A stretch of 64,000 nucleotides of DNA from Hormiphora californensis (taxonomy: Eukaryota; Animalia; Ctenophora): positions 5,890,001 through 5,954,000 of the forward strand of contig CM035354.1 in NCBI GenBank assembly GCA_020137815.1, given 5' to 3'. This document shows, piece after piece, positions 3,149-64,000 of the stretch; within the stretch, counting starts at the first letter, position 1; every line of letters starts with the position of its first letter. A program made the translations under genes and the position numbers. Below the pieces are notes generated by a model, which was given only the letters and a program-made list of their open reading frames with translations, was not told the origin of the DNA and ran no database searches.

Positions 3149-4910
3149 TGGGATTGTAATATTGACCCGGTGATATTATTGTGATGTGTTAACAATAGAT
3201 CTTGACATTCTGTCTCTTTTATTCTTGTCACATCAGTCAATAATCATGATCTCTTTTTCCATTACTCTCTCCCTCTGTATGTCTCTCTATATTGACACAC
3301 AAAGGCGGCCATGGGGGCTGGTGGTATCTGAAATGTGAAGTCTTCCAAGCAATTACTTGAAGCTATGAATTAGAGACCTCTCTGCAGCAGATCCATGTCT
3401 AGATTCATCTATTCATATTGTTCTTTTTGCTTCGAATCGGAGGGTGGTCTCCATTTATTAGACATTGGAAGAAATAGAGAGAAACTGAGAAAGAGAGGTA
3501 AAAATTAGGGAAGAAGTTGGAAAGATAGGGAGCATCTCTGTTTATACAAGCTCCCTCCGTTTCCCGTGTTTGTTTTCCAGGTTTCACTTCCACTGTCATC
3601 AAGATGAGTCCCTCTTCCACCCCCATTTGACATTCCTCAATATTCTTTACCGCGGCCCTTCACGGCTCCCACATCTATAGCTTTCCAGTATAGTGATCAG
3701 TAGGCATAACCAATCAGATCATGTATGTAATCTTGCTGTTTTAACTTGTTACAGCTCTTGCAATTGCTCCGTTCACTGCTTCTCAATTCGACAATTCCTA
3801 GAAGGTTTCAGGATGACGCCTAACACGCAAGCTCTCTCTAACTTTCTCTAACTAACTCTCTCCCAACTTCTAACACAGGCCCTCTCTCTCAATAGTCTAG
3901 TAACTTCTTCAGCTCCTTCACTCTCTCTCTCTAGTCTCTACTCGTGTACACATGTGGACATAACTGCTGTGCAGCCTTTGGACATACAAGTTGCTGTAGC
4001 CTACTCTACTCCAAACATAGCTATAATCACTTTGCCCTGGATTGTCCAGTTGCATGACGCGTGACACTGTTCACTGTTCACGCGATATTTATAAAAGGAA
4101 TAGCAAGGAATTGTCGACGCCGACACAAGTTGCACTGTCGAAATTCCTTGCTACTGCTACAGCAGCATGTAGGTTCCGGAAAAATAGTCCGGGAATTAGA
4201 AGTGTATTTGTAACATCTGAGTTTGTGTGTCATACACCGTGCAATATTCAGTTATTACGTTCACTGCTTTTTATGTGGATATTTTGTTGCACGCGTTTCC
4301 TAATTTCTAGATTTGTTTTTCACACTTTCCTCTGAAAAGTCATCAGCCAGAGAGGCATAGAGTTTGTAAAAGTTCTGGAATTTCAAGGAGTTGCAGTCCA
4401 GTGTAACATCCTATTGATTTGCTATTGGCACGCTAGTGACAAATTGAATAGTTCCAATGGTCTCTCTCTTGTATCCACCCAGTCTCTGATCTCTCCCAAT
4501 TTATCCCCGGGAAATTGCTCTCTATCAGAGAATGCTGGCGAGTCTGGTGTTTATTCATATTCTCTCTCATTATTCCCCATTTTTACAATTTGTCCCAGCT
4601 TCCCCCTGAATTGGACAGGAGGTGTTTGTTTAACTGGGACGCCGCCGCCACGCGTTGCATATATTATGTACATCACTTCCCCTTTAACGTTTATTCAATA
4701 TGGTTGTAGCAGTCAATCCTCGTCCCAAATCCACAATGGTACAAAAAGTGGAGAGCGATGGAGTAGGTGGTGGAGGTGGTGGTTTTCTAGGGATCCCAAA
4801 AGCACCGTAAGTCGATATCATATGGAGTGGAAAGATGATGTTTGTGTGGCAAATGCGTGATACCCGGACACGCAATTCCGCCCTTATTACTGATGTGTCT
4901 ATTTTCTCTG

Positions 4911-5078
<168 letters not shown>

Positions 5079-5242
5079 CCTAGCTATCACGCACGTTGCT
5101 AGCGGCGTATTACTGTTGTTGTTGATCTAAGTTTGGCTGTGTACAATATTCTCTCTGCTCAACTCGCTGTTGCACTAAATCGCTCAATAGCAAGCAGTAA
5201 TTGTAGTTGTACTGACAGTACTGTGTAATTGTGTAGTACACG

Positions 5243-8242
5243 ATGAGTCATGCTTTTCCTACAGGACGGGCGCGTAGCCAGTACGTTTTAATATGTGTGT
5301 GACCTCTTTAAATTTAGTGTTCTGGTACTGTCCATTCCGTTCTGTTCAATTCTGTTTGTGTGTCTGGAGATCTATGTTTCGGAGTTATTTAGCTACTAGT
5401 TCTGCTATATTCTACACATGATCCCCTTTCAGATCGGATACAAGTAACATAGGACAGACTGCAATTGATGAAAGTCTACTTCTGGAGTTCCTTGAAGATG
5501 AGGGAGTCGATGTTTCCACTGCCAAGTTCCTTCACGTATGTATTTTAACGCAATTCTGTCTTCTATTAGAAGTTCTAACTTGATGAATTAGTAATAATTG
5601 ATCAAATGTGTGTGTTTAGATTTTCTACTTTTAGCATCCAACCTCTTTCTCAATTCAGGGGCTTAGCAAGAATGGTTTGAGACCCCTGTCGGACCCCCGG
5701 TTCAAGATAACGATTGACAAGATCAAGGCAATGAGTAGTGATAAAGATACTATCCCTGAAGTTATGGACATGGATAGCTTCAAAAGGTATAGAGCAGCGA
5801 AACATGATATAGGGGTGGGTCAAAGCCCAGAGTGAATGACTTTTTTGAGAGACTTTATATTCTTCCCCCCCCCCCCCATGTATGAGTAGACCTATGATCC
5901 CCCTATCCCAGCATGTTACCGACCTCCCTCCCTCCCTCGCAGGTGTCTATCCTCCAACATGGTGTTCATCACCCAGGCCCTCTGTGGCAACCTCGTCATC
6001 CCAAAGTGGGGCGACTTCACCCACATCATCAGGGAAATATTCGAGGAGTGTCGACAGGCAAAAACCGGTAAAGTAGCTGATCTGACTCCACAAATGGCAA
6101 AGGTGAACGCGGAGAAGTATGCTGTCAGCATTTGTACAGTTGATGGGCAAAGGTTTAGTGTGGGTGATTTCAAGGATTCCTTCCCGGTTCAAGATCTGAA
6201 TAGAGTTCTTCTTTACACCCTATGTTGTACTGACAAGTCTGTGGATTACATTCACAAGTGAGTTTAGAAGTAGGATCTTAGTACGGGCGGGTTTGAAGAT
6301 GTGGCAACTTCTTCATTTTGGAAAACTCAAATCCAAGGCCTTATATTGTAACCCTCAATTATCTACAGCTACATTGGCAAGGAGCCTAGTGGTTCTGAGG
6401 GTGATGCTTTGGCCCTAAAGAACAAGAAACCTCACAACCCCCTCCTTCTCACTGGAGGACTAACTCTGGCATCATTGATGAAACCCACTCTCTGTTTCTC
6501 AGAGCGATTTGAGTACTTCGCAAAGAAATGCCAACAGTGAGTGTAGATGAGAGAGGGAGAGATATGTTTGACCAAGTCACGTGATTACACAATCTCGAGA
6601 CAATTATGTCAAAAGCCGGAAAGGAGAGGAACAAATAGAGCCTAATATTCACCCGTTCATTCAGGTTCTGTGGTAATGAATATGTTGGGTTCAATAACTC
6701 CCTGGCCCTATCTCTGAAGGATCACTCCAACAGACTGTACGCTATCGGCCACTACCTCAGGGAAAATGATTGCTTCTCTAAAGATACAAAGGTTAGTGGT
6801 GACAGTGACACCCATTTGTAAAGCAACGTCCCTTCATGGAGGAGATGCAACCCCATCGGCCATCTCCCACCCAATAACGGATAACCCACCGACCCAATCT
6901 CCCATCAGTAACCCATCCCTATCCCCCTGTTTTAGTACGAGGATCTAGAGAAGACGATGGAGCTATTTATCCACTATAGCGCCATTGAGATGACATGTGA
7001 TGCTGCCTCTGTCATGGCCGCCACCCTGGCCTCTGGGGGACTGTGCCCTCTCACTGGGGAGAAGGTGGTGTATCCTGAGGCGGTTAGGAACTGTCTGAGT
7101 ATGATGAACTGTTGTGGAGTTAACGATTACAGCGGAGAATTCATGTTTGAGGTGAGGATTTCAATGAATTTAATCTGTTTTTAGATCTCCATGATTTGGA
7201 GCATCTCCTGCATTCAGCTTAGAGTCATCAGCTTAGTGAGGGGCCAGGATACGCTAGCCGAGTATCTTGTAAACACGTATCTGTAGTATAACTTCTAAAA
7301 CCCCACCCTCCCAGGTTGGTCTCCCAGCCAAGTCAAATGTCTCTGGAGCCCTAATAGTGGTGATCCCTAATGTCCTGGGAATGTGTATCTACTCTCCCCG
7401 ACTGGATAGGAGCAAGAACTCTGTCAGGGGCGTCAAGTTCTGTAAAATGTTCACAGACAGATTTGTTTTCCACCAGTTTGATCCTACTGATAGGTCTAGC
7501 AACAAGATTGACCCCCGAAGAAAGGACTTCACTGAGACTAGGGTAAGGAGAGTTGTGTGTGTGTGTATAAGTTCAGTGTCCAGTGATCCTATAAACTCTA
7601 TGAATTTGTCACAATGAGTTAATTGAAACAACACACACACAGGACCAGCAAAGTCTAATCCTGCTGTTTGCTGCCTATAACGGCAACATGACTACTCTAT
7701 ATCGGTATCTGAAGGAGGGAATTAACTTTGGATACCCTGATTATGATGGCAGGACAGCACTTCACCTTGCCGTCTGTGGAAGTAAGTGATACATCATTAA
7801 TTATCTCTCTCCCACACGGCCACAATTACAATATAGGGCCTATCAAAAAATTAGTGCCTCTCCGAGTCATGTATCTATAATTGGAACCCAATTCCTTCAG
7901 TCAAGCCGCCTGTCTATCACTACCAATTACCAGCCCTTAATTTATTTACCGATTCACTACCGGATATTATGCATTGCACCGGCGTCTTTGATTAATTAAC
8001 AATAACGCCCTCCCTTCCAAACTAACACAGTCCTCCTCCCCTCCCCAGGTCAGCTAGATGTGGTGAAGTTCCTGGTTGAAAAGTGTCACGTTGATGTGAA
8101 CCCTGTAGATCGGTGGGAGAACACACCGCTGGATGATGCCCACAAATACAACAACACCCACATTATCCACTTCCTCCAGAGGAAGGGAGCTCAGAAGGGC
8201 AAGACGATCATGGGAAACTGCACCGAGACATTGCCGCATTAG
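5243..8242 (+). CDS. Glutaminase (GLS/KGA-like) homologue 1 with C-terminal ankyrin repeats; predicted catalytically inactive
   Basis: 10 phase-compatible exons (about 5243-5280, 5433-5535, 5659-5786, 5943-6257, 6369-6536, 6665-6791, 6936-7151, 7315-7542, 7643-7781, 8049-8242). Motifs: SICTVDGQRFSVGD, YIGKEPSG, KPHNP, AATLASGGLCPLTGE, VGLPAKS, YSPRLDRSKNSVRG, DYDGRTALHLA, DRWENTPLDDA. Confidence 0.93.
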
Positions 8243-8606
8243 GGAAGTTTGGGACGTGTAGGACTTGCAACTGGGAGTTGTTAATGACAATTTGATTGAC
8301 TCTGAAGTTATCGCAGTATGATATGTGCATGTGGGAGAAGAATGTTTTAGTTTACTTAGGTCTGGCGGCACCAGACCCCGCTTAGATCGCGATAGGGTCG
8401 TTGCCGTCAGACAGCTGTAGTTTACAAACTATCAGAATGAATCAGAGAGACACAACAGAATGATATGATATAGACGATGTGTTTTGTATGTTACGTGCAG
8501 GCCTGTGTGACGATCTTGATATACGTTTATGAGAAGAAATTAGTGTTCATGTCAAGTGAGTTATATTTCATCTCAGTTTATTAAAACTCCGTGTTTTTCC
8601 ATATTG

Positions 8607-15800: not shown

Positions 15801-18800
15801 CATAAGCAGACTCATGATACGTCACTAGATACGTCACTAGCATACGTCACATCACATTTACTATATTGCCTCACTCATTCTGAATGCTGGCATAATAGCA
15901 GGATATTATTCAGACAGGGATCACTAGTGAGGCCCCCCCCCCCCTAACTGAATGAATGGAATGTGTGTGTGTGTCTGCCACCTGGATCATACTAAAAAGC
16001 TACAGCTGCTATAACACAACACCCCCCTCATGAGTCATTCATAATGTATACAGCAGCAGCTGCCTTTTTACAGAGCCATACTGAGGACAAATGAGCCAAA
16101 TATACTCTACATTGTTATACATGAGTGGATGAGAGACAGCTTGTGTTATAGACTCGTGTATCACATACGTTATTATTAGAAAGAGTTCTAAGATATAAAT
16201 GCGTTGTAAATAGCTTTGTTTTTCAGCTGTCGGCAGATTGGGAATGTCAAAGTTGGCAGAATAAGATTGTGGAATCTCTCGTTCTTACTGGTAAGGAGCT
16301 ATAATGTGTGTTGGTTGGGTTGGTTGGTATGAGCGGCTGGTGATTTGGTTGTCCTACACTGACTGTACAGTGTACACCGCGCAACCTCGCCGAAGAGGAG
16401 GGTCTCATATGAGACAATGATTTGGGGGCCTTGTTAGAGGCTCTCCTGTTGACCATGAGAGGCTTCCCTGGTTTGGGATTTGCCGCCGCTGGGGGGTTAG
16501 ATTGCGCACGTGAGTGACTTCGGGGGTGAACTTGCTTACCACCGAGAGTTCGATTTGCCCTGGGGCGTCTCGGTGGGTTTGTAGTGAGTTGGTTTGTAAG
16601 CCTTACAATGTAAGGAATGTGTAAATCCCCCTACCATGGTTCCTAGATCCTATTCTAGTATTCAGGACATCGTCCCCAGCACCCTCCCTCTTACCCAATA
16701 CACATTCCCCTCCGGGTATCCTACTCGTGCCCCTTCCCTCTCATCTATTATCCCCCTCCAGGTTTCCTACTCGACCCCCCTATCACCCATCCCCCCTCCG
16801 GGTATCCTACTCGTGCCCCTTCCCTCTCATCTATTATCCCCCTCCAGGTTTCCTACTCGACCCCCCTATCGCCCATGCCCCCTCCGGGTATGCCTACTCG
16901 TGCCCCTTGGCCCTTCCCTCTCATCTATTATCCCTATTCAGGTATCCTCCTGCCGGCAATGTCAGTCCTGGTAGTGACTGTGATCCGAGTTCCTCTTCCT
17001 ACTAAACCCATTCCACTGGAGAGATATCATCTGTTACAGAAACCAGATCCTCGCCTTCATCCTAGTCACCCTGCTAACCTTCCTCCTGGGCAGTATGCCC
17101 CTAATAGGACTGTGTGAGCTGGAAGAAGTGGGAGGGGAATGTGTTATGAAGAAAACTCTCTCCGCACAGTGTGTGGCATGTTTTGCCACAACACTCGGTT
17201 TAGGGTTGGTTGTTCCTAAGGCATCCGTGTTTGTTCTCTACTTCATGATCTATGGGGTGGTACGGAAGGCACGAGAGAGCAAGAAGAGTCTGTCTACACG
17301 GAGTACTCTGTTGAGTGGAACTGGAAGTGGTAGTGGTAGTGAAAGGGTTAGAACAGAGCGAGAATCATTTCCCTGGTCAATCCTGGTAATTCTCTCACTC
17401 AATGTTTTGTCAGCCGTACCCTGGGTTGTACTGCTCGGGTTCCCGGAATATCTCTATGGATCAGAGAAATCAGAAACCTCATATCTATTACTAGATATCC
17501 TGTACTCAACACTGCTGATATCAATAGCAGTTAGCCCCTTGGCGTATCTGTTGACAACAGCTGTGGTGAGACAACAAACTTGGGACTCAATTAAAGGGTG
17601 CTTCTCTTGCTGTAAATCATCGTGAAGAAGAAGGAACCCTCATCATTAGATCGGAGAATTGGTCTGACAGGGATCAGTTGAGGTGGATAGCGTTACAGAC
17701 TAATGACATGCAGTAATGATACTGGATCATGGAGTAATTTCATATTCTCCCCCCGGAGCTATCTATCGAGGATTATATTACTGACACATTGAAACAATAA
17801 GACAATACGCAGTGAACATCTGAAATGACTCATCATTTTGTTGATAAAATGAATGATCAATTCAATTACAAATGTATTTCTTACTTTTATTCCAACCTAT
17901 AATTCACGCAGAATTAAGTTTGACAGCCAACCGGGGTAAATATTTGGTAACGAAGTTACCCCTCCCTTGCCGGCGCGGCGTGCGAAGCACGCCAAACGAA
18001 GGCCGCGAAGCGGCCTGAGTGTGAGGTGTCTTCGATACCAAGGTAAATATATCATTTTAAACTGTTTAGCTTGGCAAGTGTATGGTAATGCGAGAGCCCT
18101 ATCATGCATAATCGAATTTGGATATCCTAATGCCCAGAGAGAGGTCTTGAGCTCTTTTTCAAGGGGGAGGGATAGAGGGAGATAAAGTAAACATTAGATC
18201 ACCCCTGCCACACGTCACAGACCAACCAACCAATAGTAGTTGAACCATAATTAGTGTAGTCACGTGACTCTTCCTATCACGTGATATACCGTAGTAGTAG
18301 TCAGCGGTTACCAGAGACTGCACTAAGCGGCGTCAGTTAACCTGATACTCTGGAGCCGTCGCTGACCGCTGTCCCTTTCTCTCTATTATAGACCCCATAT
18401 CTCTAACTTCCCCTCTCTCTTTCTCCCACTCCCCCTCTCTCTTTCTCCCACTCCCCTCTCTCTTCTCTTACATCCTGATCGTCCCAAGCTAAGTCTCTCG
18501 GAGAGATGAAAGTGAAAGGGTAGACTCACTGATCCTTTCACTTTCACTTTCATTTTGCTCCGATCTATGATTTAGTTTCACTTTCGCCTTGCAGATTTTC
18601 ATTATTTTCACTTTCATTATATCATTGATGACGTAAGACCCAGTCCCACATATTCTGCATAACATGCTTCGGATATTTACTTTCACTTTCATCTTGCCCC
18701 TGCCTGAATATGCCCCGATCGGACTTCCTTCGAAGCTATTTATAACTCGCTTAGATGGCACCGTTTCATACCCAAATATGGTCACAAAAACATGCCCCCT

Positions 18801-44079: not shown

Positions 44080-44240
44080 GTACTCTTCGCCGATTGTTAC
44101 TTTCGATTTTTAAATTCCGATCAGCTGATTTACGATTAGTGTTCGCACAAACGGAATTTAAATTATAAAGAAAATTATTTAAATACAATTATTGTATTTT
44201 TATAATCAACTTCACATTATAAAGAATAGTAAAGAGTGTT

Positions 44241-46064
44241 ATGACATACTTGACTTTGGGGAACTTTGGATTATTCCTCTTCTTTCTCTACCTGGCAAAC
44301 TCCTTCAACGTTTTCTATACACTTTACTACCCAAAACTTTGTACCGAGGACTCAATATCATGCCTGTCGCCACAGTTTCCACCCGAAGGGAAATATGATC
44401 TTTATCTGTATGCCACAAAGACTCAAGGAACTGTCAACAGAGACGGTTTAATTTTCAAGAAAGAGGGCGTATCTCTTACCGATTCACTGGAAGAGGACAT
44501 CCAGGTCACTTTAGAAAGGGGCTTTACTAAAAATGTAACAATTTATGGTCAGGTTCTAGTGGTTAAATCAGGTGCTGATCCCCTTTCTCGGTCTACTGTT
44601 TCTGCCAACTACCTAACTACACTGACATCCCTCAAGAGACCGGATTCAAAGAAAGTGAACCTGCTTGATGGTATATCTGTAATAGATAACTCGACTATAA
44701 TCTCGCACTGGCGGCCCCGGCTCATAGTTCATATATTGGATCCTGATATAAAGTTTGACAGCGGTGATTTTCCCATGGAGTTCAGACGGGTCATGGATAG
44801 AAAGAGTCTAACTTATCGGCCTGTCCTCTACGTTGATCAGCTGAGTCTGACTAGACGATACGATGTTCCAATCACATCAGAGAGGGTAAATCTAACAATC
44901 AGTTTCTCACCCATCACCATTGGAAAAATGAGGATATGGTTACAATTTGAGGAGGCTTTAAACAACTTGAGAGCTCTTGGTTTTGGTGAGGACGATGTGG
45001 ACGAGGTTAAGGGAATCTTCTCTGACACGAACATGTACTTCCTGACCCTCACATTCATTGTATCGGTCTTCCATCTTCTGTTCGACTTCCTAGCCTTCAA
45101 AAACGATATCTCCTTCTGGAAAAAGAGGAAGAGCACGGTCGGGTTGAGTACTAGAGGTGTGGTGTGGAGGGCGGTTAGTCAGATAATTGTATTCCTGTAT
45201 CTGTGTGAACACAAGACATCATACATTGTACTGGGACCTGCTGGAGTTGGGATGATTATAGAAATGTGGAAGGTCAGCAAGAGTCTCAAGTTCTCTCTTG
45301 CTGGAGGGAAGGTGACATTTGGGGAGAAGAGTGAGGAAGAGAAGCTGTCGGAAGAGATTGATAAGGAGGCGATGAGATATCTTCAGTGGCTTGTGTACCC
45401 ATTGCTGTTTGGCGGTGCTCTATACTCTCTCTTTTATATGCCTCAACGCAGCTGGTAAGTTAACACATACAGGCATTCCTATTGACTATTACACAGTTGA
45501 GTGCTTTCAGATGCACTGTTTACTTTAACATATTTTGGCAATGGCATATTGAACATTTTATGTCCATCTCTCCACTCTAACCTCTCTTTCTCTTTATCCT
45601 CCCTGACCCCTCTTTCTCTCTCTTTCTCTATCTCTTTCCTCCAGTTCCACTCTGACCCCTTTCTCTCTTTCTTCAGGTATAGCTGGGTTATTAACACCCT
45701 CGTGAACGGGGTTTACTGTTTCGGATTCCTCTTCATGACACCCCAGCTCTTCCTAAACTACCGCCTCAAATCTGTGGCCCATCTCCCCTGGAGAGCGTTC
45801 ATGTACAAGGCATTCAACACGTTTATTGATGATGTCTTCGCATTTATCATCACCATGCCAACCGCTCATCGGATAGCCTGTTTCCGGGACGATATTATAT
45901 TCCTGATATATCTCTACCAGAGATGGCTGTATCCCGTGGACAAGAAACGGGTTAATGAGTTCGGTCAGGTATTTGAGGATGAGGCGATTGAGGGAAGTGC
46001 TATTGAGGATGTGAAGAAGGATGGTAGTTTAGAGATTTCTGAAACTGAAAAGAAGAATCAGTAG
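44241..46064 (+). CDS. CLPTM1L: CLPTM1-like protein (lipid scramblase family)
   Basis: Exons 44241-45454 and 45677-46064. DEVKGIFSDTNMYFL..FDFLAFKNDISFWK..PQLFLNYRLKSVAHLPWRAFMYKAFNTFIDDVFAFIITMPTAHRIACFRDD..YQRWLYPVDKKRVNEFG. Confidence 0.95.
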
Positions 46065-47315: not shown

Positions 47316-50300
47316 AGTTGGTCCACCTGCCACCACCTCCTATCGGTTTCCCCCGGGCAACAGGGTCACACGGAGTACCTTTTCCCCATCCCCTTTTCCC
47401 CTTGATCGATTTTCAGGTCCGTGTGGCCGTGGCTAAGCGTGGCTGTGTATCAAAAATACGGAAAAAAATCATAAAATACAAAACACAAAAAGATCTTCTT
47501 GGCTAGGCGGCCCACAGTGTATCATCGCCAACTATTACGTTCCTACCCCGCCTTCCCCGGCTTAGGGTTACCCGTGGAACAGGCACCTTCCAGCCACCTG
47601 TGGACCTCCAATGCCCCTTTATCTACTAACCCACTAACCAATCCTGATACTAATCTGCTAACCCCCTAAACCTCCCATTAATAGGGTACCCCGATCCAGA
47701 GAGAATAGTATACCCCTTACCCCGCGCCTGAGAGGATAGTTTACCCCGCTCCACAGAGGATAGTTGCCCCGATCCAGAGAGAATAGTATACCCCTTACCC
47801 CGCGCCTGAGAGGATAGTTTACCCCGCTCCACAGAGGATAGTTGCCCCGTTCCGGAGAGAATAGTATACCCCTTACCCCGCGCCTGAGAGGATAGTTTAC
47901 CCCGCTCCACAGAGGATAGTTGCCCCGTTCCGGAGAGAATAGTATACCCCTTACCCCGCGCCTGAGAGGATAGTTTACCCCGCTCCACAGAGGATAGTTG
48001 CCCCGTTCCGGAGAGGATAGTATACCCCTTACCCCGCGCCTGAGAGGATAGTTTACCCCGCTCCACAGAGGATAGTTGCCCCGTTCCGGAGAGGATAGTA
48101 CACCCCTTACCCCACACCTGAGAGGATAGTTTACCCCGCTCCACAGAGGATAGTTGCCCCGTTCCGGAGAGGATAGTATACCCCTTACCCCGCGCCTGAG
48201 AGGATAGTTTACCCCGCTCCACAGAGGATAGTTGCCCCGTTCCGGAGAGGATAGTATACCCCTTACCCCACACCTGAGAGGATAGTTTACCCCGCTCCAC
48301 AGAGGATAGTTGCCCCGTTCCGGAGAGGATAGTATACCCCCTACCCCGCGCCTGAGAGGATAGTTTACCCCGCTCCACAGAGGATAGTTGTCCCGTTCCG
48401 GAGAGAATAGTATACCCCTTACCCCGCGCCTGAGAGGATAGTTTACCCCGCTCCACAGAGGATAGTTGCCCCGTTCCGGAGAGGATAGTATACCCCTTAC
48501 CCCGCGCCTGAGAGGATAGTTTACCCCGCTCCACAGAGGATAGTTGCCCGTTCCGGAGAGGATAGTATACCCCTTACCCCACACCTGAGAGGATAGTTTA
48601 CCCCGCTCCACAGAGGATAGTTGCCCCGTTCCGGAGAGGATAGTATACCCCTTACCCCGCACCTGAGAGGATAGTTTACCCCGCTCCACAGAGGATAGTT
48701 GCCCCGTTCCGGAGAGGATAGTTGCCCCGATCCAGAGAGAATAGTATACCCCTTACCCCGCGCCTGAGAGGATAGTTTACCCCGCTCCACAGAGGATAGT
48801 TGCCCCGTTCCGGAGAGGATAGTATACCCCTTACCCCGCACCTGAGAGGATAGTTTACCCCGCTCCACAGAGGATAGTTGCCCCGTTCCTGAGAGGATAG
48901 TTTACCCTGTTCCTGGGAGGATAGTTTACCCCGTTCCAGTTAGATCATAATGCTTCACATATATGTCCCCGTTACAGATCCACCATATAGACATATAGAT
49001 ACACACCCGTACGCTGAAAGTGTCGGTTCGTGCTGAAAAGCTGCAAGGATGGCCGGGTAAACCATCCACTAACGGACCAAATGTGGCGGTGGGATTCCGT
49101 TACCGCTGTGCACCGGTGGCAGTGTTAAGACCCCCAAACCCGGCTCTTCTTCTAACAAACCGATGACTATGTATACACAGTGATTGGTTTGAAACTCACC
49201 CCCAAAACTTACTCATCTTATTCGACATGAGTACTAACACCCGTAAACCAAGGAAGGTCTGGTCTAAGCAAGAGAACCTAGACTTGGTGTACTGCTACTA
49301 CAGCAGCAACCCAGGCACATCCGGATCCTGGAAGAGGCTCGAACGCCTATGGGAAGACAAGGGACACGACCCATTAACAGGTGCCAAACTCTCAAGCCAG
49401 TTCAGATCAATAGAGAAATCTGGACACATGGTAACACCGCAGGAGATGGCTGATCAGCGAATGCTAGCAGGGCTAGCAGCATCTGGCCTAAATATACTCC
49501 CGGAAGTGGATCTCACGGTGAATGATAACACTGCGGGTCCGAGTACCTCGGCAAATGGGGACACCACCGATCCCCCACCACCACCCCCAACTAGAGCGCC
49601 ACGAACGAAATGGACCACAGAAATGAACATTACGCTCGTGTTCATCCACTCGTACTCACAACCTGACAAAAGAGGAGTATGGAACCGAGTGGAGGAAAGG
49701 TGGTCAAAGACAACCTACCCTTCCAAGACTGATGACCAGCTTAGATCCCAACTGAGATCTATAACTCAGTCGGGACTCCTTTCACCACAGAAGCTGATGG
49801 AAATCAGAACAGCGGCCGTAGCCGACCGTGAAGCAACTGAATCGGCACGACAGGCTGTGGTAGAGGACAACCCACCCCCAGAAACCATTGAACCCCCCAC
49901 AAACCCAGTGGAAGAGGAAGAGGAAGAGGAAGGGCCATCACCGAACCCTGAAATCGTGGAGCAGTTCAAGAAACTACTCGAGGAACCAAGCTCCATCAAA
50001 GTCACCGACTTGAGGCATGTCCCCTGGGGGAAGCTACGAGTGGCAATTGACCGACTCAGCCCGGTAATCAAGTCCTTTGAAACTCCAGACCTTACCACAC
50101 TGAACACGCTACTGATGGCCGTAGCCCATGTGGTCCGAGAACAGATGGGCGTTAAGGCACCAAGCGAACCCACCAACAACACCCCCAGAAGGAATAAACA
50201 ACCTATGTGGCTGCGACGACTCGAAGAGAGTGTCGCCAAGCTTCGCTCAGACCTCTCCAGGCTGACCGAAATGAGCAGAGGTGCCACCCACAAGTTCCAA

Positions 50301-53296
50301 ACTATAGATATTATCTATAGAAGATACCCGCTGCTGCCCAAGAAGGGCTATAAACAAGTTATAGAAGAAGTGAAGCAGAGACTGCTAGCGAAGGCCGGAA
50401 AGATTAAGAGATACAAGAAGAAGCAGCAGACATTCGTTGACAACAACCTGTTCCAGAACAACCAACGAAACTTTTACCGGAAACTGGAGAAACGTGGATC
50501 GGACCCCACGCCACTCGATTGTACTCCAGAAGACCAGACCAGGACGCTTAACTTCTGGAAAAATATCTGGGAAAACGAGGCTGGTCATAACACTGAAGCA
50601 GAATGGTTAGACGGAGTCCAGGAGAACTTTGAAACAGTCAGCCAACAGGAAGAGTTTCAGATCACCACGGAAAGAGTTGCAGCTCGGGTGAAAGGAATGA
50701 CCAACTGGTCAACCCCAGGTATAGATGGTCTCCACGCCTTCTGGATTAAACACACGACTTGCCTCCATGGTCGGATAGCTGAGCTACTCAACGAAAGTCT
50801 CATTACGAGTCAAGTCCCGGCATGGATGACTGAAGGCAGGACCTTCCTCCTGATTAAAGACCCCAAGAAGGGAATGTCAAACCCGGGGAACTTTAGACCC
50901 ATAACCTGCCTTCCGAACCTCTGGAAGCTGTATACAGGAATATTATCAGAAGACATCTACCAGCACCTCGATGTAAACGGGCTCTTTCCGGAAGAGCAGA
51001 AGGGGTGCCGCAAAAAGAGTCGAGGATGTAAAGAACAACTAGCAATTGACAAACTTATCCTACGTCATTGCAAACGCTCAAAGTCTTCCTTGTATATGGC
51101 TTTCATAGACTATCAGAAGGCATACGACTCGATCCCCCACTCCTGGATCCTTAAGTCAATGGAGATGTGCGGGATAAACCCTCAGATAATCCGACTATTC
51201 GAGTCATCATTCCAGCAGTGTATTGTCAACATCGTCCAATCTGGGTCAGACTTAGGTAAAATACACATCAAGAGAGGCCTCTTCCAAGGAGACTCCGTCT
51301 CCCCTATTCACTTTATTATAGGCCTGATCCCCCTGTCCATGCTCCTAGCTGCCCAAGGAAGAGGCTACACCATATCTGAACCCAGTAAGCTCCAGATCCA
51401 GATATTAGTATTAACCACCGCCTATACATGGACGATCTTAAGCTGTATGCCAGCTCGAAAGAGGACCTTCAGCAGCTCTTAGCAGTCACTGAGAAGTTTA
51501 GCACTGACATCAACATGTCCTTTGGTCTATCCAAGTGCGGAGCTCTAGACATTGTGGACGGAGTCAGAAGTCGGATGCAGGGAATAAGCCTACCAAGTGG
51601 AGACAGAATACCCGAGGTGGAAGATGGAGGCTATAAGTACCTCGGCATCCTGGAGGTTGACCGTATTCTTCATCAAGAAATGAAAGCTAAGGTCAAAGCC
51701 GAATACACCCGAAGAGTCAAGAAACTACTGTCCTCGAGCCTGCAAGGCAAGAACCTCATCACAGCAATCAACACATGGGCAATACCTGTGATCCGTTACG
51801 GTGCCGGAATACTGGACTGGTCCACTTCCGAAGCCAGTGGACTAGACATGATGACTAGGAAGATCCTGAGAAGAGGAGTCATCAAGAGCAACAGTGACAT
51901 TGACCGGCTGTATGTTTGCAGGAAACTGGGAGGAAGGGGTCTCCAACGGATTGAAGATGTCATTGTGAAGGAAGAGACAGGACTAGTGACATTCTTCACC
52001 AATTCCACGGACCCCAAGATCCGTGCCCTCCACACGGCGATGCAGTCTGAAGATATGCTAACTGGACCTCCAGAAGACGCAGAAGCCCTGAAGGAAAGAC
52101 TACAGACGGAACTTATAGAGAAATGGAAACACAAAGTCTTACATGGAAGATTCCTGAAGCAACTTGAAGAAGGGGGATGCGACCCTGACGCGACCTGGGC
52201 CTGGCTCAACAAAGAGAGCCTCAGCAGATACACCGAAGCCGATGTCTTTGCTGCCCAGGATCAAGCCATTCGCACGAACTGGTTGAGAGCTGCCATACAG
52301 AAAGAGAATGAAGTGACTGAGAAGTGCCGGATCTGTAACCAACACAACGAGTCAGTGGAACACATCCTAAACGGATGCACGAAACTTGCCAACGGAGACT
52401 ATAAACTCCGACACGATCGAGTAGCTGCTGCCCTGCACTGGGGAATATGCAAGGACCACGGATTTCCTACCGAATCAAAGTGGTGGAGCCACTATGCAGA
52501 GAAAGTGCTCGAGAATGAGAACTGCAAGATCCTCTGGGATTTCCACATTCAGACGGATAACCCCATCGAGGCATGTAAACCTGACGTGGTCCTTCTAGAC
52601 AAACTAAAGAAGGAAGCGCTTCTGATCGATGTCGCTGTACCAAAGGACAGGTCAGTCTCGGACAGGGAGATGGAGAAGATCGAGAAGTACCAAGAACTAC
52701 GGAGGGAGCTCACACGAATTTGGGATCTTAAAAAGGCCACGGTCATCCCTATCGTGATCGGAGCTCTTGGCGGAGTCAGCCCCCGACTGGAGAAGTACCT
52801 GACTGCTATAACCCGCCAAATTTACCCTTCACAGCTTCAAAAGTCAGTCCTCTTTAACTCGATGAACACGCTCCGGAAAGTTCTCGACATGTAATATTAC
52901 CTCCCGAGCTGTCCCCCCTGTTATTGTCAATTATTTTTTTACCCTTTTTACCCGTTCCTGCTTGCCCCTAGATTTCCCTAGATTCAGACAGTTTGCTTCT
53001 TCAGTTCCTGATAAGTTGCCTCTTCTTAGGCTCCGTTCCAGAAGGTTGGGCTTCTTTCCAGATAGCTTAGGAGGTCTTATGCTCCGCCACCATGAGCTTT
53101 AACTCCCCTTTAAATGTTTTCCCTTACTTTATCCCATATGTACATTGTTCAACTTTCCCCTATGTACATTGTTTTACCTACCTTTACTCCGCAGGCCCTC
53201 CGGGCCCTCAGATCCAACAGGATCCGGGCTCGGGGGATTTAACCCTGCTCACGCATGGGACCTTACGGCCCCATGCGGGAGTGGTGCGTGTAGTGG

Positions 53297-58273: not shown

Positions 58274-61009
58274 ATGACGGTTCCAAAGGATTTGAAAGCC
58301 CCGGGTCGAGCTAAAAAGGAGCCTGAGCAAACAACCCCCGTGGCTCTTGATAATACTCCTCCCGCTGATAACAATGATGATGTGAAGCCTGCAGAACCTG
58401 AAAATTCTGTTACTAAAGAGGCTGAAAAGGAGGAAACATTAGCTACAGATGGTTCTCCACCTGTTACTAAACAACCCATACCTGGGGATCATAAGGAGAC
58501 TGTCCCTCACTCTACTACTGCGTGCGTTGAAAAAATTTCTCCACTGAGTGCTGCATTGTTCAGAAGTTATGGGAGTGCCGGCAGGCGCCTTTGGCCAAAC
58601 GAAGCACAGCTGTACCTAAAAGCACTAAAAATGATAAATAAAAACTGCAGTTTAGTAAATCTAAATTGATCAAAGTTGAGACCGAAATAGAGCTATCTGT
58701 AGCTTTAGTTGTACTGTGTGTTTGGCCAAACTTTATGTCTAGGTTACTAAAGCATTGAATCATCAGCATAAAATCAAGCGGTGCAAAAGACGAGTGGAAA
58801 CTTGCGTTTGCCAACTTATGGTATGCCGTATTGTACTCTTACAGTGTGCCGTCTTTAACCCGTTTATCGGTGAAAAATGAGAGATTTACTCCTTCATATA
58901 TTACTCCTTCATAAAACCCTTTTAATACTACAGGAGCCTATCACGAGCTTCCTTCGAACGGGAAACTTCCGGCCGCCGAAGTTCCGACGATTTTTCCGTG
59001 ACATGCCAGTAAGACTCATTTAAATCAAAATCTCTTACACACTTTCTTTCAAAAAACTTCTTTTCACACAAGTGATTCTTTTATCTGACTGAAGTTAAAG
59101 AGGGGTTTTCATTTTCAAAAACGTGAACTCTAACAGTGTGGACATGTGTGGTAGTGGATCATTGGTAGTACAACTGCTTACTATTTCACTTTCAGATCGG
59201 AGTCGGCAGAAGTCCCTGAGATTGATGATCATCTGTTAATGGAGTTTATGGAGGACAATGAGATTATCATCGCTAAATTCCTACATTATCTTCAGTCAAT
59301 TGGGCTGTTCCCTCTCTCTGATCCTCGCTTCAAGAACATCATCAACAAGTAGGTTGGGTTTGAGTCACTGAAATAAAGTTGTGGTTTCAGGTGTAACAAA
59401 CGAGTCCAAGTTGTTCTGGGTGCTCGATCTGTTAATTATTATAACCACTCTTTCAATTCCTAACTACATAATGTTCTCTCAGAATGAAGGCATACAGTAG
59501 GGAGGGGGTAATGCCTGAGACTATGCCCCCTGATGACTTCAAAAGGTGTCTCGGCTCCAACCTTGTGTTCTGCCAGCAGGCCCTACATGGAAACCTGATT
59601 ATCCCTGAGTGGAAGACCTTCACCGATCACCTTGTTGAGTGTTTCGACTCCTGCAAGGAAATCACCGAGGGAACGGTGAGAATTTATAATGATAGGGCTT
59701 TCATTCCTCTTACATTGGGTAAACTAAAGTTTGGTTATAGACCCATTTACCACCATTCTATACACTCCTAGTGGATGTTATCTAGAGAACATGTTGCAGG
59801 TTGAGTCCCTGACACCTCAATTAAGGAATGTGGACCCTGACGCATGGGGCCTCTCCGTTACCACTGTTGATGGACAGAGATTCAGTATTGGGAACTCTAC
59901 TAACCCGTACGTGTTGTAGTGTGTTTATCCCTGTTTCAGTGTGGAATATATTCCCAGTACTAATTGATTAACTAATTGATTTGCTAATTGATTAACTAAT
60001 TGGCCACCCTCTCCTGTAGGTTCCCCCTACTCGACCTGGCCCGGGTGATCTCGTATTGTATGGTGGCTAGTGATGAGTCCTGTGAGTATGTCCACAAGTA
60101 CATTGGCAAGGAGCCAAGTGGCACCCAGGCGGAGGCCCTAGCTCTAAAGGACGGTAGACCCCATAACCCCCTCCTCATGACGGGTGGAGTGACTCTGAAT
60201 TCCTTGATGAAACCTAAACTCTGCTTTTCCGAGCGGTTCGAGTACTTTTCCACTGTCGTCCAGGCGTGAGTTTCAAATGGGTTGCTAATTTGCAATCTGA
60301 GTGCTAGCTTCCACGAGCTCGTTTTAGAGGCAGCTCAGTGGATCATAGACTAGGTTTTCATTCAGGTTTTTGGTCTTTATTTGAGGCCATTTCCTAGGTT
60401 TGCTGGTAATGACTACATTGGGTTCAATAACTCCCTCTCCCTGGCCCTGAAAGATCACTCCAACCGATTGTACGCTGTGGGTCACTTCCTCAAAACTAAC
60501 AAGTGCCTGAACAAAGATGATAACGTGAGTTGTGATTGGTACTCTGTTTGAATCTTTATAATCCGTTGACATGACCCATTAGCTCCCATACAAATTAGCA
60601 TTATGGTTTCCAGTGCAGTAGCTGCAAATTGTAACCATGCCCCTATTCCCTGACAATTACCTCCACTCGACAGATTATCCTGGACGAGGTTACTGAGCTG
60701 GATATCCACTTCTCCTCAATCGAGGCAACATGTGCTAGTGCAAGTGTCATCGCAGCGACACTAGCCGCCGGTGGAATCTGCCCTCTAACAGGTTTAGAGC
60801 GATGTACTGCGGTGTTTTTTCTTTCTACAAATTAAAACTTCTATTTACCAGCTCTGAATTTAAAGCTGAAATTATTAATTAACAACATTAACATAATTGG
60901 AAATTAACTTTCAGCGGAGAAAGCGGCTCTTCCGGACGCAGTTAGGAACTGTCTCAGTCTGATGAACTGCTGTGGAGTAAACGATTACAGTGGAGAATTC
61001 ATGTTTGAG
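58274..61009 (+). CDS. Glutaminase homologue 2, predicted catalytically inactive; 3' exons presumably beyond the window
   Basis: Nine phase-compatible exons (about 58274-58521, 58934-59008, 59196-59348, 59483-59675, 59800-59906, 60020-60265, 60397-60524, 60674-60791, 60915-61009). SVTTVDGQRFSIG, YIGKEPSG, RPHNP, AATLAAGGICPLT, CGVNDYSGEFMFE. Confidence 0.9.
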
Positions 61010-61092
61010 GTATAAGGGGGCTTCCATGCCCGTATTTATTTCTGAAAGGCTCACTTTTTTGGGGGCTGAAGTCTGTAAACTGGAACATAGTC

Positions 61093-63471
61093 TCAAACAA
61101 CAGCAGACCTTATCACCGAACTCCTGCGGTTCACTATTATTCCATTATTTCCGGGATAAATTTCCTCCATATCTTCCACGCCCACTCCGCAATACTCCGG
61201 TATATAGGTGCTGTAGAAGATGGGGTTAAGAAGGCTGTTGCTAGGCAAGCACCACTAAACTAAACACCTCGTAGATGAACACTAGGCGGGGCTGCTGGGT
61301 TAATCCAGCTGTAGTAGAGAACGGTGAAGATGTAGGACAAGCCAAGCGACCACCTGACTTCCGATTAGAAGAGACAGCTTCAATGCGAGCTTATCAACGT
61401 AATCGCTGTTATTCAGGCCGCTGTTGGCCGAGGTTAGAAAGCTAGCCACCAGGATGGAAGCATATGAGATGGTGAGGATAGATAGCAACACGCCAACTAC
61501 GACACAGTATGCGATCTTGTAGTAGAGGTAGCTGGCCTGGTTCTTGAAGATGTTGGCAAGGCAAAGAGGGCTGTTTCCATAGTAACCAATGCTTAGGTAG
61601 TCAAAGATTTCCGGCTTCGATGTTAAGTCCCGAAGGTCCGCTAATACCGTCTCAATGCTCAGCGAAGGTTCTGCAGCTGAAGCCCCATCCTCAGTTGCAT
61701 TATATGCGAGAGAGTGCATCATTCGGAGATGCTTCTCGTCATAACTGGGTATAAAGGGATTCTCCTGGCCAGCTAGTAATAGGATATCCGTCCGGAACAC
61801 CCTCTGGATTACAGACATGGGTAGCGCTGGGAGGATGGCATGGACAAGGTTAAGGACTCCGAGCACTAACGAATATACCCAAATGGCCCTTATGGAGATA
61901 TCCTTCACCAAATCCAAGCAGGTCAGGCACCGGACCAGGCTCATCATCGTTATGAGGAGGAAGGATCCGTGTGAGGAGAAGGAGAAGAGGCATCCCAGAG
62001 CAGAACAGCTGAGGCTAGACCTCCACTTTTCGTCTAGCTGACAATACTCGCCAAAGGAACGTAGACCCATCGCAAAGAGGATCAAAATGACAGAGATAGA
62101 GTCCCATCAAGAGATCATAAAATGCCACCTGTATCCTCAGAACCCTGTCAATTTTTCCAGGTTTACTCTCCGGGGTCGTTTGGATCGTGACGTGTCCTGT
62201 TTTGATGTTTAGTAACACAATAGCGACTCCTCCAGCGAATGCAAGGAAACTCAGCACGTTCGATCGAATGAGAAACTTTCTAGAGCTGAGTCGCCCAGTT
62301 GGACACCCAACACACTCATCCATGCCATTAGCACAGTCCCTTACCCCATCACAGACCCTCTTTTCATCAATCCAAGTGACCTGGTCATGTTCGGTCTCAA
62401 GACCACTACAATAGAACCTCTCTGGGCAGTACAACTCATCGTGACCGTTGGAACAGTCGATGAAACCATCACAAACCTGTCCAGAGTCCCACAGATAGTC
62501 GCCGTTGATGGGATCGCAGGAAAAAAGGGCTGTAAGACTGATGCCCTGTTACGCCCACTTTTCACCCTTTTGCAAAGGCCCGACAACCAGCTTTCAGGAT
62601 CCGTGGTATCAGATGTTTTGTTCTGTGGGAGATACGGCCGGATAACCTTTTCACAGGCCTCCGCCTCTGGATCAGTGCTCAATCCTAAGGCCTTGAGTCT
62701 ATTGCCAGCCCGGAAGATCTCCATCTGATCCATTTTTAGAACGGTACGGACGGTCTCTGATACAGATTTTATTTTGTCGCATTGCACGCTAGAGTAACCA
62801 TCGCAAGACAAGAAGGATAGAGTTCTTTTTAGGTTCTGAGAACAGAGCTCTGTCTCGGGGATACACCCAGTGTAGGATTTATCGGGAAGACACTGAACTG
62901 TCACGGCTCCGCTACACATACACTCGTCTGTGCCTCCCTCGCAGTTGGCTACCCCATCACACACTTGGGAGAAAGGAATGCAGCCGCCCAACTTTCCTGG
63001 ACAGTAGAACATTGGTTTTCCATTACACTGACACTCATCAGTCAAGCAGGCACTTGTTCTGGTGCATTTTACCTGGGCCTCATCGGGATCAGTACCTCCA
63101 ATAACGCACGTTATACCAATCGTAGACTGTTGCTGGAGAAATGTGTATAATTCTTTGAGCATGTCATCAGTAGGTTCTCGGTCTCCAGGCAAAAACTTGT
63201 TTTCCATGAATTGTATGAGATCAAAAACACCTCGACATTCCACATAGTTACCATTAAACGGGGTTACTGCAGTGAAGTTGGTGAACTTCCAAGTTATATT
63301 ACCATCTGGTCCTGAGTAGCTGAGCTGGTTAACGACGCCGTTCAAACAGGCCACCTTCTCGTATTCATATACACTCCCACCGGCTGGGACCATGTTCGGT
63401 GCCCTGATCTTGTACGTAGAGGGTGCTCCAAGGTGAACCAGTGTGGCAAGGAATATGATACAGGAGAACAT
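61093..63471 (-). CDS. LDLa-repeat GPCR (GRL101/RXFP-like 7TM, no LRRs), apparently intronless, nested antisense in a glutaminase-2 intron; about 5 frameshifts
   Basis: Signal peptide MFSCIIFLATLVHLG; LDLa repeats (CIPFSQVCDGVANCEGGTDE, VCDGFIDCSNGHDE, VCDGVRDCANGMDE); AFYDLLMGLYL, WRSSLSCSALG, YYGNSPLC, NSLLNPIFYS. The stop position is uncertain. Confidence 0.8.
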
Positions 63472-63480
63472 GATCACAGT

Positions 63481-63585
63481 CCTGTACCGAATCATGATAT
63501 ACTGGTCCCTGATTGGCTGATAACCAGTCACGTGACCTAAATAACGAGTTCTGATTGGTCGTTTACTCGTTTCGGTCGGTTCCTG
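63481..63585. mobile_element. Short MITE-like repeat just upstream of the LDLa-GPCR start codon
   Basis: accgaa..ttcggt inverted ends with internal ctgattgg (x2) and gtcacgtgac. Resembles a high-copy repeat I recall from Pleurobrachia sequences (unverified). Confidence 0.6.
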
Positions 63586-64000
63586 CTGTACTTTTACCGG
63601 TTCGAGGAGGGTTCCTTATACAATATACATCCTAAGATGGTTTTTGGTATTTCGTGCCAGGCTAGAAATACAGGCGAAAAGGGCGTGGCGCGGAAAGCCA
63701 ACACACATGGGAGCGTGCGTCATTATTTTTTGGTGATTCTGGGGACCTATCTGAGCACTTTGGCGGTGGAAAACAAAACTTGCAAACTACTTAGTTACCA
63801 AAATCACCTCATTTTGGCATAATTTTCCTGGCCTAAAAAGGATAATCATTCGATGCAGACACAATAGGAAGGGGACCTATGAATACATTTTGTAACAATA
63901 GAAGGCCCTGGGTTGGGAGCGTGTCTACCTTCCTTTAATTGTATATCTTGAAGTGGATGATCCCTTTAACAAGCAATGGAATTATTGGAACTATTGTTTT

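Follow-up and report, generated by a model that had tools for sequence, protein, structure and literature searches.

Does a gene that keeps the whole architecture of an enzyme still encode that enzyme once its catalytic residues have been exchanged? The question is raised by a glutaminase (GLS)-type gene of the ctenophore Hormiphora californensis, which lies on the plus strand of a stretch of 64,000 nucleotides (assembly GCA_020137815.1, contig CM035354.1, positions 5,890,001 to 5,954,000). This whole stretch is referred to here as the window, and all coordinates are those of the window. A first-pass annotation, made from the letters alone, had described an intact ten-exon gene at 5243–8242, in which the entire catalytic site of glutaminase was replaced by codon substitutions, and had proposed that the product cannot hydrolyse glutamine and is kept for another role. 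The analysis described here points with high confidence to a selected and expressed gene that lacks the canonical catalytic apparatus, and the encoded protein belongs to what appears to be a conserved family of pseudo-glutaminases in ctenophores. The protein likely acts by binding and not by catalysis, and several readings of the function for which this family has been retained are weighed below.

Domain Architecture and Catalytic Site

The window gene has the layout of eukaryotic GLS. Pfam searches bore out the glutaminase and ankyrin motifs that had been annotated by eye: exons 4–8 jointly match profile positions 1–286 of 286 of the glutaminase family PF04960, exons 9–10 match ankyrin families, and the N-terminal domain aligns to homologues that carry PF17959; exons 2–3 alone gave no Pfam match. 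The same arrangement of an N-terminal helical domain, PF04960, and C-terminal ankyrin repeats is found in human GLS and GLS2 (PDB 5uqe, 8gwr, 3unw, and 8szl), with which the window gene shares approximately 40% identity.

In a 2026 review (PMC13142944), S286, K289, and Y466 are given as the catalytic triad of GLS, and R317 and K320 as the residues that bind the activating phosphate. The corresponding residues of the window gene were checked exon by exon in phmmer alignments against PDB chains, and are numbered according to the 669-residue chain 8gwr_B. The alignment of exon 4, which covers human GLS 203–306 without a gap, gives Y249L, S286D, and K289R; the Ser-x-x-Lys dyad (human S286 and K289) is replaced by D286 and R289 within the segment FPVQDLNRV, found at 6181–6207 as annotated. 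Exon 5 gives L316S, R317E, F318G, N319D, K320A, F322A, and N335L, by which the GLRFNKLF activation loop is replaced and the phosphate-binding pair of the animal enzymes becomes E317 and A320. Exon 6 gives E381L and N388L and retains Y394; exon 7 gives Y414F and Y466N, so that the third triad residue is missing as well; exon 8 gives G483N and retains V484. Five of these positions (Y249, N335, E381, N388, and Y414), all of them in the list of the first-pass annotation, are substrate contacts, and their invariance in canonical enzymes was measured here; in the window gene, they are occupied by L, L, L, L, and F, respectively. All of the catalytic-residue replacements named in that annotation were right in the alignments of exons 4–7, and no Ser, Lys, or Tyr stands at the catalytic positions. 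Misalignment of the catalytic motifs was considered and rejected, because the alignments at these sites are ungapped and flanked by conserved motifs.

The wider context of these replacements was provided by an alignment of 280 rows, consisting of 278 database proteins, the window gene, and a second copy present in the window. The canonical nine-site signature, YSKNENYYV, is found in 149 of the 280 rows, which range from bacteria to mammals. Eight of the nine catalytic or substrate-contact positions are replaced in the window gene, and these, the Ser and Lys of the dyad included, are 100% invariant in the 149 canonical sequences. Because the triad, the five substrate contacts, and the phosphate loop are all replaced, glutamine hydrolysis is predicted to be beyond this protein, which we consider very likely to be devoid of glutaminase activity. 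The opposite view, that the inactivity call is wrong and that other residues compensate for those that were lost, can draw on the retention of the fold, the VGLPAKS motif, V484, and Q285; however, it has to account for the replacement of eight positions that do not vary in the canonical enzymes, in ungapped alignments with conserved motifs on either side, and a surviving glutaminase activity is, in our estimation, highly improbable.

Gene Structure and Transcription

The structure of the gene was examined with RNA contigs from four runs (X1, X3, X4, and X5) of two studies, all of them environmental metatranscriptomes. All ten exons of the first-pass annotation have GT/AG borders, and together they give 551 open codons and a stop; this structure stands, with the exception of its first exon, placed at 5243–5280. 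A single RNA contig, from run X1, extends to the 5433 acceptor, and it continues into 30 letters that are identical to window 4777–4806, so the proposed exon is placed inside intron 1 (4807–5432), the 4806/5433 join being inferred from this contig. No RNA in the four runs covers 5217–5333, an absence that by itself proves nothing. The first coding exon in the RNA, encoding MVQK...GFLGIPKAP, extends from 4736 (or from an in-frame ATG at 4700) to 4806, and the N-termini of a Bolinopsis orthologue (P0001) and of an environmental transcript (L002) align to 4736–4806. The protein has 562 residues with the exon starting at 4736 and 574 residues from the upstream ATG. Intron 1 also holds a long (CT)n microsatellite with a few interruptions, at approximately 4905–5075.

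The N-terminal domain is encoded by exon 2 (5433–5535) and exon 3 (5659–5786), and the joints 5535/5659 and 5786/5943 are both crossed by an X1 contig. The glutaminase domain, whose exons 4–8 were also placed by phmmer, starts in exon 4 (5943–6257; PF04960, E 7.6e-13), which contains the codons of L249 (6082–6084), D286 (6193–6195), and R289 (6202–6204); an X3 contig over 6051–6205 shows zero differences from the window. Exon 5 (6369–6536), joined to exon 4 at 6257/6369 in an X5 contig, contains the replaced activation loop S-E-G-D-A-L-A-L-K (6394–6420) and the L335 codon (6448–6450). Exon 6 (6665–6791; X1, X3, and X5 contigs) contains the codons of L381 (6714–6716) and L388 (6735–6737), and is joined at 6791/6936 in three runs to exon 7 (6936–7151), which contains those of F414 (6966–6968) and N466 (7122–7124) and is joined in turn at 7151/7315 in X1, X3, and X4 to exon 8 (7315–7542). 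The glutaminase domain ends in exon 8 with the segment VGLPAKSNV, in which N483 (7336–7338) precedes the retained V484. Exon 9 (7643–7781; Ank_2 and Ank_4), joined at 7542/7643 in all four runs, and exon 10 (8049–8242; Pfam ankyrin families), joined at 7781/8049 in X1, X4, and X5, encode the ankyrin repeats, and the TAG stop at 8240–8242 is crossed by contigs. The 3' untranslated region extends, as far as the RNA contigs reach, over 8243–8571 (X5 contig 8049–8400 and X4 contig 8371–8571). Seven GT..AG joints (5535/5659, 5786/5943, 6257/6369, 6791/6936, 7151/7315, 7542/7643, and 7781/8049) are seen directly in RNA contigs, and the eighth junction, 6536/6665, is given by a loose end of 12 bases only.

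The listed contig pieces span the codons of L249, D286, R289, L381, L388, F414, and N466 with no listed difference.

Purifying Selection

The earlier suggestion that the gene is kept is supported by both its expression and its constraint. Spliced RNA is present in two studies, and the listed differences between contigs and window are all synonymous (19 of 19). In comparisons of orthologue pairs, for which the relatives were three intron-less environmental transcripts (L001–L003) obtained from a metagenome contig scan, the proportion of nonsynonymous differences (pN) is 0.11–0.20 against a proportion of synonymous differences (pS) of 0.70–0.83, which is saturated; the ratio of nonsynonymous to synonymous rates (dN/dS) is 0.07–0.09 in two of the six pairs, the synonymous rate being saturated in the other four. 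The window gene is under strong purifying selection.

These observations bear on the simplest alternative, namely that the gene is a duplicate in decay or was produced by faulty assembly or annotation. The family has indeed undergone recent duplications, with at least three closely related loci in Bolinopsis; yet a decaying duplicate is ruled out by the synonymous variants and by a pN far below the saturated pS, and the open frame, the correctly spliced mRNA, and the recurrence of the same signature in independent genomes and transcriptomes led us to reject both a pseudogene and an indel or assembly artefact. The replacements are codon substitutions, as had been argued from the open frame, and we give decay or artefact next to no credence.

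A Family of Predicted Dead Glutaminases in Ctenophores

The rebuilt site is shared by a clade of ctenophore proteins, here called the dead clade, and is fixed in three paralogue lineages known from Bolinopsis, Mnemiopsis, and environmental transcripts. The signature L-D-R-(L/M)-L-L-x-N-x is found in eight of the eight clade rows, which comprise the window gene, the second window copy, three Bolinopsis or unlabelled proteins that belong to the subclade of the window gene, and three more from two other subclades. Beyond these rows, 12 of the 14 members of their 90% clusters are of the dead type at every covered site, and the remaining two cover no site. The best-matching labelled proteins are a Bolinopsis microptera "glutaminase kidney isoform, mitochondrial-like", which is 81% identical along its full length, and, from Mnemiopsis leidyi, hypothetical proteins. 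Among the matches listed, the dead loci amount to at least three genes in Mnemiopsis (G009493, G010093, and G010086) and at least five in Bolinopsis, and since one Bolinopsis protein (P0068) carries the full canonical signature, dead and canonical copies coexist in this genus. The dead clade is monophyletic, with a support of 100 in the Shimodaira–Hasegawa-like approximate likelihood ratio test (SH-aLRT), and is divided into three subclades; a long stem of 1.96 changes per site leads to it, and the branches inside it are short, at 0.18–0.5.

Columns that are at least 95% invariant in the canonical enzymes number 104 between human positions 140 and 560. The dead clade keeps 71 of them and has changed 33, and in 14 of the 33, a single new residue is fixed in every clade row (L249, T250, D286, R289, G338, L381, N386, L388, H416, C462, V465, N466, N483, and F521). 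Within the glutaminase domain, 157 of 312 columns are invariant across the clade, a conservation at least equal to that of the N-terminal and ankyrin domains, and the clade has likewise conserved its new loop, S-E-G-E-A-L-x-L-K.

The second dead paralogue in the window is located at 59155–61011 on the plus strand, where 343 residues of a partial protein were recovered by tblastn and from open reading frames (ORFs). Its signature (L249, D286, R289, M335, L381, L388, D414, and N466) is of the dead type, and it groups in the tree with Mnemiopsis G010086. It is transcribed, as an X3 contig matches 60919–61011 exactly before running into exon sequence absent from the window; its 3' exons lie outside the window, and its intron positions differ from those of the first gene at at least three places.

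The subclade designated A-type is represented in Bolinopsis by at least three loci (P0001, P0282, and P0283) with 87–96% mutual identity on two chromosome-scale contigs, and the dead family is therefore still duplicating. A loss of mitochondrial targeting was entertained and dropped: the dead clade has short, charged N-termini, but the canonical Bolinopsis protein has one of the same kind. Two other ENA proteins of 470–484 residues without ankyrin repeats (P0023 and P0026) keep S286 and carry K289D, Y249H, N335P, N388I, and Y466R; judging from these residues, they may represent a further non-canonical glutaminase lineage.

A Parallel in Fishes

Dead GLS paralogues are not confined to ctenophores. 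Glsl, which occurs in ray-finned fishes and the coelacanth (P0042 and P0162–P0275), is a conserved paralogue of GLS that databases usually label "glutaminase liver isoform, mitochondrial". Like the ctenophore clade, it is full-length and lacks the dyad, with S286E and K289W in 102 aligned rows, and it also carries N335E and N388L. Zebrafish glsl appears in an earlier study as a novel Ensembl prediction with swim bladder expression, outside the GLS and GLS2 clusters (PMC6197330).

The columns changed in both Glsl and the ctenophore clade number 23 of the 104, against 15.2 expected (P ~0.001), and the same replacement has occurred in both at E381L, N388L, Y466N, and L459M, whereas the loop and positions 286, 289, 335, and 386 carry different residues in the two clades. 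In three free trees, all of them quick searches for which the tool warns of long branches, Glsl is placed beside vertebrate GLS and GLS2 (SH-aLRT 90–92), and the ctenophore dead clade is placed beside the canonical ctenophore enzyme (SH-aLRT 96–97), or, without that row, at the base of the animals. When the two dead clades are constrained to form a single group, the log-likelihood drops by 4.1 units over all columns, with a p-value of 0.40 in the approximately unbiased test (p-AU) and hence no rejection, and by 22.7 units, with a p-AU of 0.040, a borderline rejection, when 29 active-site and loop columns are removed. This fall in p-AU indicates that the attraction between the two dead clades sits in the rebuilt sites, which is what convergence would predict. 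As the trees separate Glsl from the ctenophore clade, the alignments and trees suggest that the two dead states are convergent, with a shared origin as the less likely reading.

Fold, Oligomer Contacts, and Possible Function

The predicted structure of a Bolinopsis orthologue matches solved GLS chains. The AlphaFold2 model of the Bolinopsis orthologue P0001 has a mean predicted local distance difference test (pLDDT) score of 82.3, and superposes on the catalytic core of human and mouse GLS chains with template modelling (TM) scores of 0.91–0.96 and root-mean-square deviations of 1.8–2.6 Å (TM 0.77 on multidomain chains).

According to the 2026 review (PMC13142944), glutaminases of animals must be assembled by phosphate into tetramers and filaments to be active, and the review is also the source for the roles in filament and oligomer contacts of the following residues. 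The dead clade retains F355, F373, and N375 and has E in place of D412, whereas F378, Q379, and Q416 are changed to A/S, L, and H (A, L, and H in the window gene), and R317 and K320 are likewise exchanged for conserved residues. These features form the basis of the reading that we prefer, though it is held tentatively and at somewhat less than even confidence: the window protein may serve as a regulatory subunit that forms oligomers and has no catalysis of its own. It keeps the core of GLS and a number of the residues for oligomer contact, and the pocket, rebuilt with the Asp–Arg pair and Leu, Leu, Leu, and Phe, would form a new conserved surface together with the loop S-E-G-E-A-L-x-L-K. This surface would no longer respond to glutamine or phosphate. 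The protein would join with copies of itself or with the canonical enzyme of ctenophores, and also assemble through its ankyrin repeats, and would thereby either tune an assembly-dependent glutaminase activity or recruit partners.

Arrangements of this kind are familiar from other enzymes. Trypanosome "prozymes" are dead paralogues retained beside an active, assembly-dependent enzyme. Plant PDX1.2 is likewise a dead paralogue that selection has kept alongside an active, assembly-dependent one. PDX1.2 and the prozymes belong to another fold family and are proven binders and regulators of their active paralogues, a role that the window gene would share on this reading.

A regulatory subunit is not the only use to which the rebuilt pocket could be put. 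It may instead serve as a ligand-binding module, in which the rebuilt pocket, more hydrophobic and with its Asp–Arg pair, binds a small molecule other than glutamine, the protein acting as a sensor or carrier with oligomerisation and the ankyrin repeats as its output. The new residues at 249, 286, 289, 381, 388, and 466 are invariant in eight of the eight clade rows, no part of the protein is more conserved than the glutaminase domain, and fish Glsl reached L381, L388, and N466, apparently on its own. In addition, the changes from E to L and from N to L each require two base changes in the standard genetic code, and therefore argue for selection on pocket chemistry. On the other hand, the leucines, being buried, could do no more than occupy and stabilise a pocket that is no longer used, and because the contacts for the amino and carboxylate groups of an amino acid have been lost, sensing of glutamine or glutamate is unlikely. 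Such a module is assigned roughly one chance in four, and so stands behind the regulatory subunit.

The same conserved replacements, which are not random, could also be those of a neofunctionalised enzyme, in which Asp-x-x-Arg and the new pocket catalyse a different reaction on a non-polar substrate. Slow evolution after a long stem is what a change of function would be expected to leave behind, and the oxyanion-hole region, VGLPAKS-x-V, is largely kept. Nevertheless, all three triad residues are changed together, Arg is a poor general base, and Asp-x-x-Arg is not known to be used by any protein of the Ser-x-x-Lys beta-lactamase-like fold; we consider new chemistry improbable, though less so than a persisting glutaminase.

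Several points weigh against a regulatory subunit and the evidence on which it stands. Three GLS positions whose alanine substitution disrupts filaments are changed in the dead clade, so co-assembly with the canonical enzyme is not assured. K311 and R454 have a role at the dimer interface, and a literature search found nothing on the interface mutants D391K and K316E. A single canonical ctenophore glutaminase (P0068) is found among the matches listed, the N335L codon lies outside the listed contig pieces, and the RNA contigs speak to presence and splicing, not to how much, where, or when the gene is expressed. Some other chemistry is conceivable for an Asp-x-x-Arg pair; the invariance of the pocket over three paralogue lineages would suit ligand binding at least as well as a role in assembly alone, as would the partial convergence with fish Glsl (E381L, N388L, and Y466N).

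Other Features of the Window

The remaining features of the window include a rhodopsin-type receptor fragment at 16984–17625, CLPTM1 at 44223–45458, and two long ORFs with RVT_1 (reverse-transcriptase) matches at 49167–52894 on the plus strand, which likely belong to a retrotransposon without long terminal repeats (non-LTR). None of these neighbours (the receptor fragment, CLPTM1, and the RVT ORFs) provides a functional link to the dead glutaminases. Beyond 61011, the end of the recovered part of the second copy, two long minus-strand ORFs at 61300–62106 and 62341–63615 have no Pfam match. The interval 63486–63588 is matched by very many RNA contigs, with summed depths above 1000 in three runs, and since each contig continues into different sequence, it represents a repeated element present in many transcripts.

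Implications for the Ctenophore Glutaminase Family

Eight "GLS enzymes" in Pleurobrachia and nine in Mnemiopsis have been counted, and this expansion has been read as a sign of elaborate glutamatergic signalling (Moroz and Kohn 2016, PMC4685580); in a 2026 preprint, GLS is scored simply as conserved in Ctenophora. Our literature search found no description of a GLS-type pseudo-glutaminase in the text available to it; Pasquali et al. 2017 and the 2014 ctenophore genome paper lay beyond its scope and may bear on the matter. Because at least three Mnemiopsis and at least five Bolinopsis genes have a dismantled site under constraint, such gene counts would overstate the glutamate-making capacity of these animals, and part of the comb-jelly "glutaminase expansion" is probably not enzyme.

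A broader picture may be drawn, which we offer as possible but doubtful. Comb jellies would possess an old, multi-gene family of non-enzymes with the GLS fold and a new conserved pocket and loop, and fishes would have arrived independently at the same rebuilding of these positions. On this view, a second job without catalysis would recur in the GLS fold, for instance metabolite sensing or the control of glutaminase assembly, and a good part of the "eight to nine glutaminases" would make no glutamate.

The ctenophore glutaminase family would, on the evidence of the rebuilt and constrained sites, conceal a conserved function of another kind. Ctenophores and fishes may together be regarded as two independent natural experiments, in which the same pocket positions of a drug-target enzyme have been rebuilt, and a non-catalytic role of the GLS fold would thereby become directly testable.

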